Assembly: GCA_001029635.1 (NCBI GenBank)
Contig: CP011209.1
Coordinates: 618,435-682,434 of the forward strand
Direction: 5' to 3'
Length of the DNA stretch: 64,000 bases
Origin: Candidatus Wolfebacteria bacterium GW2011_GWB1_47_1
GTDB lineage: Bacteria; Patescibacteriota; Minisyncoccia; UBA6257; UBA9933
Shown piece by piece: positions 4,280 to 23,957 of this stretch. A program made the position numbers and the translations under genes. The notes beneath the pieces were generated by a model, which worked only from the letters and a program-made list of their open reading frames with translations, did no database searches and was not told the DNA's origin. Numbering within the stretch: position 1 is the stretch's first letter; each line of letters starts with the position of its first letter.

Positions 4280-4315
4280 TAACCTACTACCTACAACCAA
4301 TAACTAATAACGATA

Positions 4316-4343
4316 GTAAAAAATCCCCGCCGTAGGCGGGGAT
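4316..4343 (-). terminator. intrinsic terminator (atccccgcc-gtag-ggcggggat + T-run on minus strand)
   Basis: hairpin plus tttttt when read on minus strand, just downstream of the 4359..4607 gene. Confidence 0.6.
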
Positions 4344-4358
4344 TAAATCGTTATTTAC

Positions 4359-4607
4359 CTAAACTAGTCGCGTCCCTGATTTTCGCAAGGTGACTGTTAT
4401 CATCACGGCAATCGCCGTAAAAACTAACAGCCATACGATAATCGGGGGGAGAAACCAAGGGACGTTCGGGAATATGATAATGATCAATCCCGTAATGACG
4501 CCAACTACCGATAATCCGATAGGATTCCAGAGAAAGAATGAGGTCATGGCAGCAATAACCGTTCCGATTCCAGCGAGCATCAGCATGCGGAGCTTCCAAG
4601 GTTTCAT
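4359..4607 (-). CDS. small membrane protein (2 predicted TM helices), unknown function
   Basis: 82-aa hydrophobic ORF; the alternative overlapping frame 4351..4599 looks non-coding. Confidence 0.4.
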   Translation of the reverse strand: MKPWKLRMLMLAGIGTVIAAMTSFFLWNPIGLSVVGVITGLIIIIFPNVPWFLPPIIVWLLVFTAIAVMITVTLRKSGTRLV

Positions 4608-4703
4608 TGCGCGCCTCCTATAAAAGTAGGATATAGATCAAAATACTGTAATATATTTACCATATTTTTATAATATTGTCAACATGATGTATACTGAATC
4701 TAT

Positions 4704-5879
4704 ATGAGAATACTTTTTACCGGGGGAGTTACCGGGGGGCACATCATGCCTCTTATATCCGTCGCCGAGAAATTGCCTATTGTGGCACAGTCGAGAGGCA
4801 TTCCATCACTTGAGTTTTTTTACCTTGGCGTGCCGGGAATGTATGCGCAGGAGCTTACTTCTAAGGGGATTACTGTTTCCCGTGTTGCTTCCGTAAAGAT
4901 GCGTCGTGGAGCGATCATCCGTAATATTATCGAACTTCCGCTTTTAATCGTTGCTATTATACAGGCGCTTTGGCGCGTGTATTGGATCATGCCTGACGTC
5001 CTCTTTTCAAAAGGAGGACCGGGGGCATTGCCTGTTGTATTGGCATGTGCCTTCTATCGTATCCCGATCATCATTCATGAATCCGATTCTGTTGCGGGTC
5101 TTACTAACCTTGCTTCTGCCCGTTTTGCCAAACGTATTGCAATTGCCTATGCGACCGCAAAAGAGTCGTTTGTCGGTACTCCTGCTAGCGATGTTGCGCG
5201 GGCTGCCATTGAGCAAAAGATCGCGTTGATCGGCAATCCTATTCGTAATTTTTTCTTAACCTCTTTTGATACGACTGATCGCGCGACTGTAAAACGCATC
5301 ATGGATTTTGATCCTGCAAAGCCCCTCCTGGTTGTTATCGGGGGGTCTCAGGGGGCTGTGCGCATCAACGAATTCCTTCTTTCAATTGCAGAAGATTTAC
5401 TTACGCGCAATATTCAAGTTTTGCATCAAACAGGGGTCAACAATATTGGCTCCGTAAAAGGTGATCTTGCGCTTGTTATGAAAAAGTATTCAAACATGTA
5501 TCAGCATGCGTATCGGGCTGTTCCGTATTTTGAAGAAGATATAAAGGATGCCTATTGTGCTGCCGACATCGTGATCTCTCGGGCGGGGAGTGGGTCGATT
5601 TTTGAGATTGCAGCCATGGGCCGTCCAGCCATCCTTATTCCTTTGCCGCAAGAGATATCGCGCGACCAGGTAAAGAACGCATTCGAATATGCCGCGACTG
5701 GAGCCGCGATCACCATCGAAGAATCTAATCTGACCCGAAATATCTTCCTTGATCAGTTAGATCGGTTGTTGGCTAATCCGACAATGCTTGCCTCGATGGC
5801 AGCCGCGGCAAAGGCATTTTCCCGTCCGGAGGCTGCGGAAGTATTAGCCAAAGAGATTGTTCATTTGGGACGCCGATAA
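4704..5879 (+). CDS. murG: undecaprenyldiphospho-muramoylpentapeptide beta-N-acetylglucosaminyltransferase
   Basis: MRILFTGGVTGGHIMPLISVAEKL N-terminus, GT28 architecture. Confidence 0.85.
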   Translation: MRILFTGGVTGGHIMPLISVAEKLPIVAQSRGIPSLEFFYLGVPGMYAQELTSKGITVSRVASVKMRRGAIIRNIIELPLLIVAIIQALWRVYWIMPDVLFSKGGPGALPVVLACAFYRIPIIIHESDSVAGLTNLASARFAKRIAIAYATAKESFVGTPASDVARAAIEQKIALIGNPIRNFFLTSFDTTDRATVKRIMDFDPAKPLLVVIGGSQGAVRINEFLLSIAEDLLTRNIQVLHQTGVNNIGSVKGDLALVMKKYSNMYQHAYRAVPYFEEDIKDAYCAADIVISRAGSGSIFEIAAMGRPAILIPLPQEISRDQVKNAFEYAATGAAITIEESNLTRNIFLDQLDRLLANPTMLASMAAAAKAFSRPEAAEVLAKEIVHLGRR

Positions 5880-9385: not shown

Positions 9386-10648
9386 ATGCATGGAGCATAT
9401 CACAAGGGAATAGCCCTTTACGTATTGGTCACGATCATGACAGGTTCTTTTGTTGTGGTTCGCGGAGCGGAAACGCCTCCAGAGATCAAGACAGCTATCG
9501 AAAAGAAACGTCAGGAAGAGCAAGAACTTGGCAATCAGATCAAGGCTGTACAGGGTGCGCTTGAAACGACCGCCGGTGAAAAACAGACGTTACAACGTGA
9601 ACTGACACAGATTAATAGTAACGTGAAACAACTTGACCTGGGTATCCGCTATAGTAAGACTGCCGCTGAAAAGCTCGGCTATGAGATACAAGATACACAG
9701 TATACCATTGAAGAATCGGAGGAACGGATCGAAATCCGTAAAAAGGATATTGCCGAGATGTTGAGACAGGTTCAGCAAAAGGATTATTCCGAAGGACCGC
9801 TCATGTCCATTTTAAAAGGTAAAAGTCTTACCGATGCCGTCGGTGAAATCCAGGCACTAATCGAATTTCAAGAGAATTTTTCCCAGGAGATTCGCGAGCT
9901 ACAGGGTTATACGGTCGAGCTCGATCAACACCTCAAGACCGCCGAAGAAAAGAAGCACCAGAAAGAGGTCGAGACCGAGAATTTTAAAAACAAAAAGGTT
10001 ATTCTCGATCAGACTAAACAATATCAGCAACAGCTACTTGCACAGACCAAAAACAAGGAGCAGATCTATCAGAACTCGCTTACCGAACTGAAGAAGAAAC
10101 AAGATCAGATCGATATCGAGATCGCACGTTTGGAATCCGAAGCGCGCAAGGATATTAACATTAGTGCATTGCCAAAGGTTGATACCGGACCGCTTATGAT
10201 GCCTGCGCAAGGAAGGCTTACGCAGGGGTATGGCGCTACGCCGTTCGCATTGCGTAGTTATGCCAGTAAGCGACACAATGGTATCGATATCGCTGCACCG
10301 ATCGGAACGCCGATCTATGCAGCGTCTGATGGGCGAGTCGTCGGGGTCGCTGATCAAGACTTATATTGTCGCAAAGGGGCCTATGGCAAATTTGTTGCCA
10401 TAACGCACTATAACGGATTGACCACGCTCTATGCCCATTTGTCCTTGTGGAAGGTCAGTGAAGGTCAAGAGGTAAAAAAAGGAGATGTAATCGGATATAT
10501 GGGTAGTACTGGATTTTCTACCGGATCACATCTGCATTTTACCGTGTATGCGACCCCAACGTTTAAGATAGCTCCTGCGGCGAAAAGCTGCGGACCGAAG
10601 ATGCCGTTTGGAGGGGATCTAAATCCGTTTGATTATTTGGCCAAATAA
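9386..10648 (+). CDS. M23-family metalloendopeptidase with N-terminal coiled-coil (EnvC/murein-hydrolase-activator-like)
   Basis: long coiled-coil region then M23 motifs HNGIDIAAP...GSTGFSTGSHLHF. Confidence 0.8.
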   Translation: MHGAYHKGIALYVLVTIMTGSFVVVRGAETPPEIKTAIEKKRQEEQELGNQIKAVQGALETTAGEKQTLQRELTQINSNVKQLDLGIRYSKTAAEKLGYEIQDTQYTIEESEERIEIRKKDIAEMLRQVQQKDYSEGPLMSILKGKSLTDAVGEIQALIEFQENFSQEIRELQGYTVELDQHLKTAEEKKHQKEVETENFKNKKVILDQTKQYQQQLLAQTKNKEQIYQNSLTELKKKQDQIDIEIARLESEARKDINISALPKVDTGPLMMPAQGRLTQGYGATPFALRSYASKRHNGIDIAAPIGTPIYAASDGRVVGVADQDLYCRKGAYGKFVAITHYNGLTTLYAHLSLWKVSEGQEVKKGDVIGYMGSTGFSTGSHLHFTVYATPTFKIAPAAKSCGPKMPFGGDLNPFDYLAK

Positions 10649-10656
10649 AAACTTTT

Positions 10657-10782
10657 AAAAACCTCAAAAATTAGCGAACTGCGGCGTTACGGGGCCCAGT
10701 TGTGACAGGCGCCGTACACGTAAGTGCGTTTTCTGTTACAACTTTCCCGTGCCTCGCATTTCATCTAATTTTTGAGGTTTTT
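10657..10782 (+). ncRNA. 126-nt rod-like element bounded by 18-bp perfect inverted repeats, followed by a U-tract
   Basis: left arm aaaaacctcaaaaattag 10657-10674; right arm ctaatttttgaggttttt 10765-10782; internal helices such as agttgtgacag/ctgttacaact. Confidence 0.4.
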
Positions 10783-10847
10783 TATTTTTATTCCGAAATG
10801 TTTTTAATATGACGAGTTGATATGTTGTCTGGTATACTTATATCCAT

Positions 10848-11828: not shown

Positions 11829-12644
11829 TTGTCAATATTTCGATACATGGGCGATTTTGCTATACTATTGCAAACTTATAACCGTATGTATTACAAAACA
11901 GGAGAAGAATTCAAGGAAGTTTCTGGCTATGATCTTGAGCGCGGATGGTATCCTCGTGTGACAAAGATTTTGGAGATTAAATCAAAACCTGCATTGTATA
12001 AATTCTATGGAGAGCTTAGTAGTTTTGATGAGGGTGAGATAATCAAAGAAAAATCCGCTTCGGAAGGGACTATGGTGCATGAGGCATGTCAGGCAATTTT
12101 GCTTGGTCAATCCCCTTCTATTGATCCTTTGATTCAGCCGGCAGTTGACGCGTTTGTCTCCTTTATCGACCATACACCGATTCATACATCAGCTGATTTC
12201 ATCGAACGACGCATTATTAACCATGGCGAGCGGTATACCGGAACCATCGATGCATTAGCGTTGATCAATGGTAACTATGGTGTATTGGACATCAAAACGT
12301 CTCAGTCAATCTATCGCGACTACAACTTGCAGACAGCCGCGTATATGGGCGCACTTGAAAAACAATTTCCGAAGTTGCAAACCCGATGGATCTTACGTAT
12401 TGATCAGGCAAAAGAATGCAGCAAGTGTGGCGCATCGCTGCGACAGAAAGGCGGGCGTGATAAGGTGCGCGCCGGGTTTGGTAAAGGCGATCCGAAATGC
12501 GAGCACGAATGGTCCGAGATGAAGGGTTCTATTGAGTTGAAGGAATTTCCGTATTGGCAGAATGACTACAAGGCATTCCTTGCTGCAAAGAAACTTTGGG
12601 AATGGGAAAATGATTATTGGTTACGTCAGATCGGATATTTGTGA
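11829..12644 (+). CDS. PD-(D/E)XK (RecB/Cas4-like) nuclease with C-terminal Cys zinc-ribbon
   Basis: GTIDALAL...VLDIKTS (D...D-x-K), QTAAY (QxxxY) motif, CSKCG...C.H cluster; the true start may be the internal ATG near 11847. Confidence 0.5.
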   Translation: MSIFRYMGDFAILLQTYNRMYYKTGEEFKEVSGYDLERGWYPRVTKILEIKSKPALYKFYGELSSFDEGEIIKEKSASEGTMVHEACQAILLGQSPSIDPLIQPAVDAFVSFIDHTPIHTSADFIERRIINHGERYTGTIDALALINGNYGVLDIKTSQSIYRDYNLQTAAYMGALEKQFPKLQTRWILRIDQAKECSKCGASLRQKGGRDKVRAGFGKGDPKCEHEWSEMKGSIELKEFPYWQNDYKAFLAAKKLWEWENDYWLRQIGYL

Positions 12645-14640: not shown

Positions 14641-14934
14641 ATGGCACATACCAAAGCCAAGGGGTCTACTAAAAATGGCCGAGACTCCCAGGCACAACGA
14701 TTAGGAGTAAAGCGACAGCACGGCCAGACTGTCGGCGCAGGTGAGATCTTGATCCGCCAGCGTGGAACTAAATATTTGCCGGGTCTCAATGTTGCCCGCG
14801 CAAAGGATGACACCTTGTACGCGATGATCCCGGGAACCCTTCAGTTCTTGTCACGCACCAAGATTAAGTTTGACGGAAACAAGCGAAGCGTAAAAGTTTT
14901 GACCATTGTTCCGAAGACTGTTGTCGAGGCATAA
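14641..14934 (+). CDS. rpmA: 50S ribosomal protein L27
   Basis: [25 protein letters not shown]...[11 protein letters not shown]. Confidence 0.9.
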
Positions 14935-14946
14935 TGTGATATTATG

Positions 14947-14980
14947 AAAAATCCGCCTTTCAGTTGATGGGCGGATTTTT
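14947..14980 (+). terminator. intrinsic terminator after rpmA (aaaaatccgcc...ggcggattttt)
   Basis: hairpin and T-run. Confidence 0.75.
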
Positions 14981-15010
14981 GTGTCTTCATTTTCTTAAAA
15001 AACGTTTTCT

Positions 15011-15032
15011 GTACTTTTTCTGGAAAAAGTAC
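15011..15032. other. second hairpin gtacttttt-ctgg-aaaaagtac
   Basis: 9-bp perfect stem. Confidence 0.4.
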
Positions 15033-15143
15033 CAAAAAGCCTGCGAGCGAAATAAAAAAGCGGAATGCCTTTAAAAATTCCTTACGAAGTCCGAGGGTGC
15101 GCCCGTTTATCAACGGGTCCCCGCACCTCGGATTCTGTGGGAA

Positions 15144-15490
15144 TTTTTTGCGTTCATTCTGGTCGCTTTTTTACAGCTCGCGCCCGGATGTGAGGAGGTT
15201 TTCTTTGTCTATTTAATCCTTGTTTTTATATGATCGCAACATCGAATACGAGAATTTTTCTTCGTTCATTTATACTTTATTTTTACAACTCGCATTGGAA
15301 TGCGGGGAGATTTTCTTCGCCTATCTTCACGCCGTTTTTACATGCTCGCAGGTGCGAATGCGATTCAAGAATTTTTTTTGCCTTCATTGCGCAGCAGATT
15401 TTATTTTTCGTGTGCGCGTTGTCATCCGGCCCTTTATTTTTCATGCCGCTTGCCACGTGGAACATAATCATTTTTTTTATGTTGCTACCG
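15144..15490. repeat. array of about 6-7 degenerate tandem repeats, period 55-57 bp (T-rich half tttttcttcg.ttcatt..., then tttttaca.ctcgc plus a 15-17 nt GC-rich variable segment)
   Basis: unit starts near 15144, 15199, 15255, 15311, 15372 and 15437; lies between the rpmA terminators and the terminator of the minus-strand membrane gene; preceded by a nested hairpin at 15091-15131. Confidence 0.8.
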
Positions 15491-15491
15491 T

Positions 15492-15519
15492 AAAAAAAGA
15501 GCTGCGGCGTTGCAGCTCT
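15492..15519 (-). terminator. intrinsic terminator of the 15556..16209 gene (agagctgc-ggcgt-tgcagctct + T7 on minus)
   Basis: seen in sequence. Confidence 0.7.
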
Positions 15520-15555
15520 TTCTGTGTCTACGGGATGTTTTTTAGTTATGCCGAT

Positions 15556-16209
15556 TTACGATGACATCGGCTGAATTTCTTCTCGTGAGGAATCCGGTCG
15601 CCTTCCGTACTTTACGTAGAGAAACACAAGCAACCGCGCAACGAGGGCCACCCCCAGCACCTCCATTAAGAAGGTAAGGCCACTTACGGTCGCCTGTTCT
15701 CCTAGAAACGATAAGCCACTGATAAGAACATACCCAAAGACCGCGCAGGTGGTGGCTCCGCATAACATGATCGATTTCAGGGTTTCGCAGAATATCGAAA
15801 ATAGCAGGAACACGGGCATGGAAATCAGGATTAACATGGTGATGAACCACTCCGGGCGATCCGATCGCTGCGGCTCCTTGAGCTTCGGGATGAAACGCCC
15901 ATCTTGATAGCTGTAGGTGATTTCGGTTATTTCCGTTATCTGCCTGAGCGGTAATCCGAATTGTAGATCTATCGCAACTTCTTTGCCGGTCCAGCTTGCT
16001 CCTTTTCCGAATTGCTTCAGTCGGTAGGCTGTTGCCAGAGGCAGGTCCTTTGGAACATCGTTGATCATCTCGATCACTCTTTCGCCTTGGCTCACCACTA
16101 CGGCGTTTTTTACCCGCTGAAAGGACAATTCCTGATCAGCCGCAGCTAAGGCAAAACCTGAAACAGGTATACTTACCAGCAAGATTGCCATCAAAATTAT
16201 TGTTCTCAT
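15556..16209 (-). CDS. membrane protein: signal peptide, extracytoplasmic domain of about 110 aa, three C-terminal TM helices; unknown function
   Basis: SD GGGAGGGG at 16216-16226, which fits the second ATG at 16209 better than the track start at 16215. Confidence 0.55.
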   Translation of the reverse strand: MRTIILMAILLVSIPVSGFALAAADQELSFQRVKNAVVVSQGERVIEMINDVPKDLPLATAYRLKQFGKGASWTGKEVAIDLQFGLPLRQITEITEITYSYQDGRFIPKLKEPQRSDRPEWFITMLILISMPVFLLFSIFCETLKSIMLCGATTCAVFGYVLISGLSFLGEQATVSGLTFLMEVLGVALVARLLVFLYVKYGRRPDSSREEIQPMSS

Positions 16210-16312
16210 CGCCATCCCCTCCCTATCCTTTTAGTATGGTGTACTGAAAACAAAATTGCACATACCTGTTATTTTGTCAATCTCCAGCTTACGGAATGTG
16301 CTCGAGGTATTT

Positions 16313-16342
16313 TTGACTTTTTGTTGGATAGGCTTATATACT
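16313..16342 (+). promoter_or_regulatory. sigma-70-like promoter of the mini-ORF pair (TTGACT-N18-TATACT)
   Basis: -35 at 16313-16318, -10 at 16337-16342. Confidence 0.5.
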
Positions 16343-16390
16343 GGGGGTAGATTCTTTATCATTCGTCATTCTTAGTGAGGAGGTTTGAAA

Positions 16391-16534
16391 ATGTTTTCGA
16401 TACCGGGTGGCTTGGCAGAGCGATTGGGATTCCCTTCGTTCAATATCAATCTTGACCTCGATGATATCGCTGACGTCAGCGAGGAAGCAGCTGCTCACGT
16501 GTCAGTGAATCCCCGATTCGCCAGAAGGAGGTAG
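16391..16534 (+). CDS. small acidic peptide, 47 aa (MFSIPGGLAERLGFPSFNINLDLDDIADVSEEAAAHVSVNPRFARRR); leader-peptide-like
   Basis: strong SD GAGGAGG 7 nt upstream of the ATG; ends at TAG 16532-16534; below the track size cutoff. Confidence 0.55.
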   Translation: MFSIPGGLAERLGFPSFNINLDLDDIADVSEEAAAHVSVNPRFARRR

Positions 16535-16540
16535 TCTGAT

Positions 16541-16696
16541 ATGCTTATGCGAATTAAGCGTGGAGGAAAGATGGTTTTTATCCGCACTCAGCCTGCTCCG
16601 AGGACAAAGTGTTCGTGCGGTAAATTGGGGTGTTGCTGTGGCGCTGTTGATCTCTCGGCGCGTCCCTGGACAGGATATGGGTATCCCCATAGGTAA
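16541..16696 (+). CDS. small basic Cys-rich peptide, 51 aa (MLMRIKRGGKMVFIRTQPAPRTKCSCGKLGCCCGAVDLSARPWTGYGYPHR)
   Basis: SD AGGAGG 9 nt upstream; same reading frame as the preceding ORF, separated from it only by TAG plus 2 codons; 5 Cys within 10 residues. Confidence 0.55.
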   Translation: MLMRIKRGGKMVFIRTQPAPRTKCSCGKLGCCCGAVDLSARPWTGYGYPHR

Positions 16697-16720
16697 GCCG
16701 CCGCATTACTTTTTATGACA

Positions 16721-16752
16721 AATGCCTCGCCGATACGGCGAGGCATTTTTTG
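16721..16752 (+). terminator. intrinsic terminator of the mini-ORF operon (aatgcctcgcc-gatac-ggcgaggcatt + tttttg)
   Basis: 11-bp stem and T-run. Confidence 0.75.
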
Positions 16753-16756
16753 TTGG

Positions 16757-17215
16757 CTATTTTTCTGGATTGAGTGTGACGGTTATCGTGCCGTTGATAC
16801 TGTGACCAAAGCTTATTTTTATTGCATGTGCGCCAAGTGTTTTGATCTGTTTTTCAAGATCTACTTTAATCACCGCATGCGCTTTTGCCAGAGGAGAAAG
16901 CTTCGCCTTGACCGCTTCCTCGATCTCGTGCTTGGTTACCGAGCCGAATACTTCCCCATTCTTTCCTACCTTTGTGATAAAGATGAATGCGTCATCGGCC
17001 AGTGTCTTTGCCAATGCATGCAACTCTGCTTCCAGTGTCTGTTGTTGTTTTGCCTTGCTTTCCTTCTGTACTTGCAAGATATGTGTTTCATGTCCTGTGG
17101 CAATCTTAACCAGCCCCTTTGGAATGAGCATATTTTTTGCGTGACCGTCGGAGACGTTTTTTACTTCTCCCTTTTTTCCTATACCCTTAATATCCTGCAA
17201 TAATATTACCTTCAT
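16757..17215 (-). CDS. rplI: 50S ribosomal protein L9
   Basis: [35 protein letters not shown]. Confidence 0.9.
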
Positions 17216-22632: not shown

Positions 22633-22652
22633 AACGCCCCGGGAGGGGCGTT
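22633..22652 (-). terminator. terminator module aacgcccc-ggga-ggggcgtt (family copy 1)
   Basis: T-run on minus strand; downstream of the 22669..23022 gene. Confidence 0.65.
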
Positions 22653-22668
22653 GCGGATTTGCGACAAC

Positions 22669-23022
22669 TTACGGAAGATGGCCACTGCGATCAGGAGGGA
22701 TATAGTTCATGTATATGATCTGGATGCTGTAGCGGTACATGCCAGGATACTTGCTGATGATATCCAGGATCGGTGCAAGCGTAGCCGCGTCTTTGCATGT
22801 GTGATAGATGCGTACGTACGGAGTACCCGTGAACCTTTCCTGGACCCTTCCGCCGATGTACACTTCCTTGTCGTCGGTGATCGCTGTTACGATAAGGTCG
22901 ATGTCGGGGAATGCTTCCCGAAAATAGAGGGTAATTTTTTGATCGGTATTTTGTAGGTCCCATAACGCTTGCCCTCTGCCAATGCCATGGAATTCGATCT
23001 GAACTGTTATCCTTGAATTCAT
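22669..23022 (-). CDS. hypothetical protein (117 aa), no family recognised
   Basis: ORF with its own terminator; the overlapping R-rich frame 22691..23197 was rejected. Confidence 0.45.
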   Translation of the reverse strand: MNSRITVQIEFHGIGRGQALWDLQNTDQKITLYFREAFPDIDLIVTAITDDKEVYIGGRVQERFTGTPYVRIYHTCKDAATLAPILDIISKYPGMYRYSIQIIYMNYIPPDRSGHLP

Positions 23023-23098
23023 CTAGTCTCCTCCACTCTCTATGTGATGATATACTAGGTCTAGTGTGTCTTATTATTCCGGGTTTGTCAAAACAAAA

Positions 23099-23118
23099 AA
23101 CGCCCCGGGAGGGGCGTT
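23099..23118 (-). terminator. terminator module aacgccccgggaggggcgtt (family copy 2, identical stem-loop)
   Basis: seen in sequence. Confidence 0.65.
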
Positions 23119-23132
23119 GCTGCGACGAAGGG

Positions 23133-23480
23133 TTAGTTAGTCGGGAGAGTCGCGAGCGTCTTAAGGAAAGAGCGATAGCTGTCAATCTGAACCCCATCTG
23201 TCAATTGCAGATCGAATGTTCCTTTAAGTGGTTCCAGTGCCTCAGCGACAGAAAGCATTGCGGGGTTGTCCATTTCTCCGACGATGCGAATAATCGGCTT
23301 TGCCCGCTTAAGAGCTGAATGTAGCGAAATACGCCTGTTGTTTTCTGACACGATAATACAACACTGATCCCTGGCCTCCTGAGAAATACCTCCGAGTGCT
23401 TTTTTGATATCACCTAGCGTTGCACCTGTCATCTTTTGATCAGCGAAATCACCGATGCCATCTATAAAGATATTAATCAT
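23133..23480 (-). CDS. hypothetical protein (115 aa)
   Basis: ORF with its own terminator. Confidence 0.45.
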   Translation of the reverse strand: MINIFIDGIGDFADQKMTGATLGDIKKALGGISQEARDQCCIIVSENNRRISLHSALKRAKPIIRIVGEMDNPAMLSVAEALEPLKGTFDLQLTDGVQIDSYRSFLKTLATLPTN

Positions 23481-23566
23481 ACTACATCTCTCCTTTCTGT
23501 GGCTTGCTATGAACTAAAAGTACCTTAATTCTAAATATTTTTCCTGTCAATTTATTTGGTTAAAAA

Positions 23567-23586
23567 AACGCCCCAGGTGGGGCGTT
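23567..23586 (-). terminator. terminator module aacgcccc-aggt-ggggcgtt (family copy 3)
   Basis: seen in sequence. Confidence 0.6.
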
Positions 23587-23600
23587 GGATGCGTGTCTTG

Positions 23601-23957
23601 CTAAAGTTCATCCAGATAACTTTGCCGCACTACTGCGGGCGGGTTTGACGGATTGTACCACTCCCCCTTTTTTGCCTTGGGCGGAATGTAAGACGGCATA
23701 GGGATGATATTGATGCCGTATCCTGCTGCCCGGGTGTGTTGCTCCCGTGTGCGGATCAATGTGACGATCACGGTAACATCTTCTTCCGGTTCTACCCCGA
23801 TGCGGATGATAGAGGCCGGAGCATCGCTAACCACCCGAAACATGCAGTCTTTTGTGTTAATACCGTACGTTTCGATTGCTAGCCGCATTTGTCCGAGACT
23901 TTCTTCTGCCCATTGCCGTTGGTCCGGGGATTCTATCTGTAGTTCGAAAAAGACCAT
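23601..23957 (-). CDS. hypothetical protein (118 aa)
   Basis: ORF with its own terminator. Confidence 0.45.
   Translation of the reverse strand: MVFFELQIESPDQRQWAEESLGQMRLAIETYGINTKDCMFRVVSDAPASIIRIGVEPEEDVTVIVTLIRTREQHTRAAGYGINIIPMPSYIPPKAKKGEWYNPSNPPAVVRQSYLDEL

Follow-up and report, generated by a model that had tools for sequence, protein, structure and literature searches.

Two kinds of repeat show enrichment downstream of coding sequences, namely the BOX elements of Streptococcus pneumoniae, in which boxA and boxC accompany boxB modules in variable number, and the terminator-like SPRITE repeats; both vary in size as tandem modules are gained or lost (PMC3049150). TIGR arrays, which are common in the candidate phyla radiation (CPR, or Patescibacteria), show poor conservation of their repeats and have 9-nt spacers; they carry a terminator at the end of the array and can be hard to detect (PMC12045711; bioRxiv 10.64898/2026.09.09.750476). 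The TIGR unit is defined by two 8-12-nt spacers, with the same box C before and the same box D after each (PMC12045711). Here we describe a degenerate tandem array at positions 15144-15490 of a 64,000-nucleotide stretch of the genome of Candidatus Wolfebacteria bacterium GW2011_GWB1_47_1 (referred to below as the window, in whose coordinates positions are given unless another contig is named). It forms the end portion of a longer non-coding element of roughly 270 bp that folds into a hairpin, and the genome holds a second copy of this element at another place. The small, streamlined genomes of CPR bacteria are generally held to contain few repeats and little mobile DNA, and a full-text search of the literature found no description of small dispersed intergenic repeats in them. 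On balance, we read the array as an arm, amplified in tandem, of a small palindromic repeat that is non-coding and dispersed, similar to MITEs (transposable elements of miniature size with inverted repeats) and with the modular build of BOX.

The gene order at the locus is rpmA (plus strand, ending at 14934), a 620-bp non-coding region that holds the element, a gene for a 219-aa protein (minus strand), two small open reading frames (ORFs; plus strand) and rplI (minus strand). The rpmA product, L27, is AKM78393.1, coded at 14641-14934. We refer to the element at this locus as copy B and to the second copy, at the polA locus, as copy A. From left to right, copy B consists of the following parts:

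14997-15002, no strand: A-run at the left junction; in the alignments, homology with copy A starts here.
15005-15038, no strand: T2, an AT-rich 9-bp hairpin and the left module of the element; shared with copy A and followed by a T-rich run on the minus strand.
15039-15088, minus strand: U0, an inverted unit that forms the left arm of the palindrome (its reverse complement against unit 1, z = 4.2, and against the core of U4, z = 4.4; inverted-repeat pairs).
15089-15133, no strand: central hairpin, nested and GC-rich, which forms the palindrome's apex (-26 kcal/mol whichever strand is folded; unique within the window).
15042-15183, no strand: imperfect palindrome of about 142-147 nt, made up of U0, the central hairpin and U1 (from RNA and DNA folds; same architecture in copy A).
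15125-15233, plus strand: first alpha-beta dimer (R1 and R2, from the re-phased alignment and z-scores); R1 doubles as the right arm of the palindrome.
15234-15345, plus strand: second alpha-beta dimer (R3 and R4, from the lag-112 duplication, z = 13); best match to the two units of copy A.
15346-15462, plus strand: third alpha-beta dimer, decayed (R5 and R6; R5 against R1, z = 5.4, and against R3, z = 4.2; R6 marginal).
15490-15521, no strand: T3, the bidirectional terminator (15496-15521) of the convergent orphan gene, plus an A-run; right boundary of the element (-15.9 kcal/mol on the plus strand, -17.5 on the minus strand).

The palindrome is predicted to fold almost equally well on the two strands of RNA (15039-15185: -66.1 kcal/mol on the plus strand and -64.6 on the minus strand), and single-stranded DNA from 14990 to 15262 also folds strongly (z = -5.5). 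Unit 1 (GGAATTTTTTGCGTTCATTCTGGTCGCTTTTTTACAGCTCGC) is the right arm of this palindrome and the inverted unit is the left arm; the conserved T-rich half of the units and the core TTTTTACA.CTCGC are therefore palindrome-arm sequence. The nested hairpin that the first-pass annotation placed at 15091-15131, ahead of the array, is real (-26 kcal/mol), and compared with copy A the differences within the central hairpin (15089-15133) are confined to its loop. The same annotation gave rpmA two terminators, of which the first (14947-14980) is genuine but the second (15005-15038) is T2 and belongs to the repeat element; because CCAAAAAG comes next on the plus strand, T2 is not a plus-strand terminator. 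Rfam gave no relevant match, either at gathering scores in the window or at E values up to 10 in 14900-16800, and nothing specific to the units; a search for tRNA and tmRNA found none.

The array was initially taken to hold six or seven units of 55-57 bp. A degenerate tandem repeat does exist at 15144-15490, but only four units (15144-15371) are individually significant and the dominant lag is 112 bp rather than the length of one unit. Over 15144-15371 the autocorrelation at lag 112 reaches 0.62, compared with a largest value of 0.47 among 1000 dinucleotide shuffles, and at lag 57 it is 0.41, compared with a mean of the shuffle maxima of 0.377 (standard deviation 0.018). A repeat search likewise returned an 84-nt pair at a spacing of 112 (70% identity), together with 30-nt and 15-nt families at spacings of 55-57 and 112-118. 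A 112-bp block has been duplicated (15144-15255 aligned to 15256-15371, z = 13), and each block consists of two related units of about 56 bp. Unit-to-unit identity is about 40-70%: units 1-4 are mutually related (pairwise z of 4.2-8, U1/U2 excepted), and units 5-7 are marginal (z at most 3.9) and are missed by a profile made from units 1-4. Tandem Repeats Finder, run on the whole window, reported no array here even at a score threshold of 30, and elsewhere within the window the unit motifs occur at chance level. When the units are re-phased at the CTCG junction, two alternating subtypes appear, alpha (R1, R3 and R5; GAATTTTTTGCGTTCATT) and beta (R2 and R4; GGAGRTTTTCTTYGYCTAT), and because of this alternation we describe the array as (alpha-beta) x 3 with the third dimer decayed.

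Two further properties ascribed to the units required revision. A small hairpin is present in U1, U3 and U4 (-6.4, -8.8 and -6.3 kcal/mol on the plus strand), but U2, U5 and U6 have none that is usable, and the hairpins that do form are far weaker than the genuine terminators of this genome (8-13 bp stems with 5-8 G-C pairs, -16 to -19 kcal/mol). The second property is the layout of conserved plus variable segments: two segments of about 9 nt vary in each unit, V1 being flanked by TTCATT and TTTTTACA and V2 forming the loop of the CTCGC/GYGRG hairpin, but these "variable" segments are homologous between units.

Copy A occupies the space between the polA 3' end and an orphan gene that converges on it and codes for 199 aa (AKM78080.1, UX70_C0001G0355), one of three tandem paralogues; for comparison, the ORF annotated inside the array of the window carries the locus tag UX70_C0001G0683. 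The 199-aa protein and L27 were both traced to a contig of 984,447 bp, which places the two copies in one genome. A scan of metagenome contigs for an exact pattern (the core, 15-19 nt, then TTTTCTT) returned 27 stretches, of which only one contig, L114, holds real units. L114 is 91% identical to window positions 14997-15182 (BLAST), and the common variant of copy A (contig L124) is 94% identical to 15003-15186. Copy A contains the AT-rich hairpin, the inverted unit, the central hairpin and only two units (alpha and beta), as against four clear and two decayed units in copy B, and its units are nearest to R3 and R4 of the window (the second unit of copy A against R4, z = 9.9; BLAST identity 72% over 92 nt). 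Both copies are flanked by the terminators of convergent genes and have the same orientation relative to the orphan gene, and both have A-runs at the two junctions (copy B: AAAAAA and AAAAAAA; copy A: AAAGAAA and AAAAAA), in low-complexity sequence that overlaps the terminator A-tract. Divergence between the copies is uneven, with 11 of 83 positions differing in the left part (15003-15085) versus 3 of 98 (two substitutions and one gap) in 15086-15183 (Fisher p = 0.012); in T2 an A-T pair of one copy is replaced by G-C in the other (15013 A to G with 15030 T to C). The two neighbouring orphan proteins (219 and 199 aa) are unrelated, and a segmental duplication carrying the gene is ruled out. 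Searches with a profile of the units (nhmmer) and with the whole element (BLAST) over 130 loci, about 950 kb of sequence mostly from other CPR genomes, found these two copies only, and searches of viral contigs and of phage and plasmid records gave no match or single chance matches only.

The first-pass annotation had proposed a search of relatives for the unit, and we found the element absent from both orthologous sites. At rpmA, the distance to rplI is 38-70 bp in four relatives (L086 and L088-L090; L27 94-99% identical), with no element; in L084 a 338-bp gap holds only a single small ORF (its homologue in the window is the ORF at 16541-16696), and in L004 (L27 97% identical) an unrelated 188-aa ORF stands between the two genes. 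At polA, two relatives (L131 and L132; PolA 81% and 77% identical) have element-free intergenic regions of 158 bp and 43 bp. We therefore infer from these absences that the element entered both sites in this lineage. Entry at the rpmA site was accompanied by, or lies adjacent to, about 1.8 kb of other new DNA, and copy B and the 219-aa gene together make up a lineage-specific insertion of about 1.8 kb from rpmA to rplI. The orphan protein itself falls into a single protein cluster (100% identity) in a search of 5.8 billion proteins. The spans between rpmA and rplI differ widely (14935-16756 in the window, 4292-5161 or 870 bp in L004, 5295-5632 or 338 bp in L084, and 415-452 in L086), and with three different insertions in three close relatives the convergent junction is an insertion hot spot. 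Contigs of the same species are 100% identical at both loci, with the exception of an indel-type difference at the T2 loop and the adjacent A-run in L114; because of this identity, they provide neither copy-number polymorphism nor covariation data.

These results are best accommodated, in our judgement, by a dispersed palindromic repeat one arm of which was later multiplied. The element itself comprises the left AT-rich hairpin, a palindrome of about 147 nt (inverted unit, GC-rich hairpin, direct unit) and one further direct unit. As a non-autonomous repeat, either mobile or spread by ectopic recombination, it would have reached two or more convergent intergenic sites in a single Candidatus Wolfebacteria species, by insertion or by copying, in each case beside a terminator A/T tract. 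At the rpmA site the two-unit alpha-beta tail (112 bp) would afterwards have been duplicated twice, the likely cause being slipped-strand mispairing or unequal recombination. Slippage may have been aided by microhomology at each junction (the units end in CTCGC and the central hairpin in CTCGG) and by the single inverted unit, which could pair with every direct unit and so give rise to alternative hairpins. The boxB modules of pneumococcal BOX elements are described as behaving in this way (PMC3049150). The decayed block would be the oldest or the least constrained part of the array, and the small hairpin and T-run of the units would derive from the place where the central hairpin joins the arm. 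The A-run at 14997-15002 may be one half of a target-site duplication whose other half is 15490-15496, although both are low-complexity sequence. We infer no dedicated function for the element, which is probably selfish or neutral; its hairpin would at most add insulation that is not needed, because strong terminators already bracket the element. The nearest of the explanations offered earlier, a decayed minisatellite or neutral decaying duplication, captures the recent, lineage-specific tandem amplification and its absence from relatives; it fails in being purely local, because the array ends a larger palindromic element of which the genome has another copy at a different locus.

Several described repeats invite comparison. 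Like BOX, the element is a composite intergenic repeat with a conserved end module, a variable tandem module and a predicted stable stem-loop; the left module is shared and the unit number varies between copies, but we found no distinct right (3') module. BOX differs in having more than 100 copies per genome and a defined boxC, whereas here there are two known copies, in a CPR host, with no sequence similarity to BOX, and the tandem module is itself a palindrome arm. With MITEs and with the ERIC/IRU, Correia and RUP elements it shares a non-coding nature, a length of 100-300 bp, AT-rich arms, strong pairing, intergenic and dispersed location, and presence or absence among relatives; unlike them, it shows no convincing terminal inverted repeats at its outermost ends, only an A-run as putative target-site duplication, no known partner insertion sequence or transposase, and at least two copies. 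SPRITE repeats and REP/BIME clusters resemble it in placing a hairpin and a T-rich tract at gene 3' ends and between convergent genes, with a possible incidental role as terminator or insulator, but the unit hairpins here are much weaker than the real terminators of the genome, and the palindromes of REP families are short and GC-rich and number from tens to hundreds.

Several observations weigh against a dispersed repeat of this kind. Only two copies are known: the number per genome is at least two, on the basis of about 100 kb examined out of a genome of 984 kb. No transposase or integrase gene was found within 10 kb of either copy and no transposase was identified for the element; inspection of its outermost ends, at about 14997 and about 15490, revealed no convincing inverted repeat (comparison of the tails, z about 0); and the putative target-site duplication is a low-complexity A-run. 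The second copy could owe its origin to ectopic recombination and not to transposition. The identity of strains at both loci leaves no sign of ongoing change in copy number. The uneven divergence of the two copies and the compensatory pair in T2 are suggestive of constraint or gene conversion, neither of which is required of an element that is purely selfish. Two features on the minus strand likewise do not fit a purely neutral or selfish element, namely the T-rich run after T2 (TTTTTT in copy B, TTTCTTTC in copy A) and a promoter match at 15425-15398. Three features in and around the element are as follows:

14947-14980, plus strand: T1, the intrinsic terminator of rpmA (RNAfold, -19 kcal/mol), followed by TTTTTGTGT; outside the repeat element.
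15556-16215, minus strand: gene for the orphan 219-aa membrane protein, convergent with rpmA.
15398-15425, minus strand: predicted sigma-70-like promoter match (ATGACA-16-TAAAAT, 10/12), directed toward rpmA and inside the decayed block.

The element might instead be a minus-strand RNA, either from a non-coding RNA gene of its own or as the orphan-gene mRNA extended at its 3' end, which would start in or to the right of the units, form the long hairpin and end at T2 and its T-run, with the units as duplicated 5' or promoter-proximal modules. We consider this unlikely, although it is the main rival. Read on the minus strand, the conserved core (TTTTTACA) becomes TGTAAAAA(T) and looks similar to an extended -10 element; the pairing of T2 is kept through one compensatory change, followed by the T-rich run; the comparison with copy A shows only 3 differences over the 98 positions of the central hairpin and unit 1; at each of the two loci the element is enclosed by terminators and is close to the orphan gene on its downstream side, in the same orientation; and another long hairpin of this genome (10646-10793) is clearly under structural selection. 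Yet the promoter position is not common to the copies, the 10/12 match being in the decayed block that copy A lacks, and the invariant T of the -10 hexamer follows TGTAAAAA only in some units. The covariation in T2 amounts to a single event, because only two sequences are available, while in the outer arms of the palindrome the changes in copy A at 15060 and 15067 break pairs without compensation; nor is there an Rfam family. A functional, strand-specific RNA module specific to this CPR lineage, whether the minus-strand 147-nt hairpin ending at T2 or a degenerate guide-like array with an unrecognised effector encoded elsewhere, is in our view quite improbable. Small RNAs made from each unit, which had also been suggested, find no promoter plus terminator per unit and no Rfam match; on the plus strand a promoter was predicted only in U2 (9/12), at a rate that equals chance (32 found versus 33 expected). 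Equally, we see little prospect that the units act as tandem intrinsic terminators that back up read-through from rpmA and insulate the convergent genes. In a loose scan U1 and U3 do look like terminators (6-7 bp stems followed by TTTTCT), G-U pairs stabilise them on the plus strand (-6.4 and -8.8 kcal/mol versus -2.5 and -5.1 on the minus strand), and SPRITE is a precedent for repeats co-opted as terminators; but the strong T1 already stands ahead of the array, equally weak matches occur at the chance rate (27 found versus 21 expected), U2, U5 and U6 have no usable hairpin, and a single shared terminator suffices in relatives. To call the region a transcriptionally insulated spacer is nevertheless a fair description, with predicted terminators on both sides, and the terminator given earlier for the convergent membrane-protein gene is real and bidirectional (15496-15521). 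The tail of T1 (14973-14991) resembles the beginning of a repeat unit (79%).

A role at the level of DNA, in which the units would be a protein-binding array (iterons, a sopC-like centromere, operators, or recombinase or transposase sites) and the palindrome a cruciform or recognition structure, is also improbable. It could explain the two conserved blocks per unit and their regular spacing of 55-57 bp, the small dyad at the left end (AAAAAACGTTTT in copy B, AAGAAATGTTTCTT in copy A) and the fact that the palindrome arm is kept in sequence and not in pairing alone; a selected cooperative array would not, however, be expected to have units only about 40-70% identical or a three-fold difference in unit number between copies, and the genes within 10 kb of either copy include none for replication, partition or a recombinase. 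Iterons or an origin of replication are rejected, there being no enrichment of DnaA boxes and no rep or dnaA gene nearby. The 6/9 match of the core to the DnaA box, noted earlier, is meaningless: TTATCCACA with at most one mismatch occurs 14 times in the window versus 15.5 expected, and not once in the array. Cumulative GC skew forms a maximum, not a minimum, with a plateau at 13-31 kb where gene orientation flips from mostly plus to mostly minus, and the window probably spans the replication terminus region and not the origin. A degenerate guide-RNA array related to TIGR or CRISPR had to be taken seriously, because TIGR arrays are frequent in CPR, poorly conserved and built with 9-nt spacers, and the host, the period, the two variable segments of about 9 nt per unit and the terminator at the end of the array all agree. 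It is now very improbable and largely refuted. No gene for a Nop-domain protein (Tas, PF01798) or cas gene was found within 10 kb of either copy (Pfam and hmmscan, E up to 10; a divergent Tas could escape), and the flanks of V1 (TTCATT/TTTTTACA) and V2 (CTCGC/GYGRG) differ on either strand, with no box C / box D pseudo-symmetry of the matched kind that TIGR units have. V1 of unit 1 is near-identical in the two copies (one substitution) and partly base-paired in the palindrome. The resemblance to CRISPR repeat-spacer arrays, already called superficial, goes no further than a fixed period and the alternation of better and less conserved segments: the repeats are 40-70% alike rather than near-identical and thus far too degenerate, there are no unique spacers, and Rfam gave no match to a CRISPR direct repeat.

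Other readings were rejected outright. Protein coding is ruled out for the array: the periods of 55, 57 and 61 bp are out of frame, there is no Shine-Dalgarno sequence, and the 42-aa plus-strand ORF has no ATG in copy A. A template/variable repeat pair of a diversity-generating retroelement does not fit, with mismatches not confined to adenines and no reverse transcriptase nearby; nor does a rolling-circle origin, since the TTGATA in the loop of the minus-strand hairpin is not kept in copy A. A phage or plasmid origin was likewise rejected, with no similarity to either. Within the array, public annotations place a hypothetical protein of 62 aa (AKM78394.1) at 15283-15471 on the minus strand; it lacks a Shine-Dalgarno sequence, and a search of protein clusters gave no homologues or variants beyond its own alternative-start version. 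It is almost certainly a false gene call.

If the array is indeed the amplified arm of a dispersed palindromic repeat, then MITE- or BOX-like dynamics would operate in CPR genomes too, with a composite palindrome spreading within one Wolfebacteria species and one of its arms being multiplied, and the regions of convergent terminators would be marked as insertion hot spots. At a practical level, the array has been mis-annotated as a 62-aa protein and can be confused with a CRISPR- or TIGR-like array. The importance of the element is modest unless it is transcribed or associated with an effector.

A separate hairpin of about 148 nt lies at 10646-10793 (plus strand), directly after a gene for an M23 peptidase and flanked by an A-run and a T-run. 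Homologues occur at the same site in related Wolfebacteria (L084 881-1030, L091 970-1117, and L092 17-163 and 380-526), and a paralogue lies between nusB and rpmF in the same genome (L124 5115-5261). RNAalifold gives 47 consensus pairs, 29 of them with compensatory double changes; from this covariation, long intergenic hairpins under structural selection do exist in the lineage. A covariance model scores 128-153 bits on the plus strand versus 42-60 on the minus strand. No Rfam family matches, and the hairpin may represent either a structured RNA not described before or a family of terminator-like repeats. Kinship with the palindrome at 15 kb was rejected, the covariance model scoring 13.7 bits there, which is the level of a generic hairpin.

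Among the neighbouring genes, the two small plus-strand ORFs beyond the orphan gene (16385-16534 and 16541-16696) have strong Shine-Dalgarno sequences and no Pfam match. The second of these (51 aa) is Cys-rich (KCSCGKLGCCCG), and the IKRGG motif at its N-terminus is also found in the small ORF at the same position of a relative (L084 5405-5554). Just upstream, 11829-12644 (plus strand) codes for a conserved 271-aa protein with a weak signature of a PD-(D/E)XK nuclease (PDDEXK_1 in Pfam, with E = 0.013, which does not reach the curated cutoff). At the polA locus, L124 8381-10600 contains three tandem paralogous orphan membrane proteins of 184, 270 and 199 aa with no Pfam match, which have the motif SRYxRAD(L/I)xPGIxVxxYDRDVLKR in common; L131 and L132 have three to four genes of differing sizes at this position. 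Another tandem triplication, in this case of gene plus terminator, is seen at 22633-23957 (minus strand), where three paralogous small genes (117, 115 and 118 aa) are followed by near-identical terminators (AACGCCCC[AT]CC[TC]GGGGCGTT) at a spacing of 466-468 bp.

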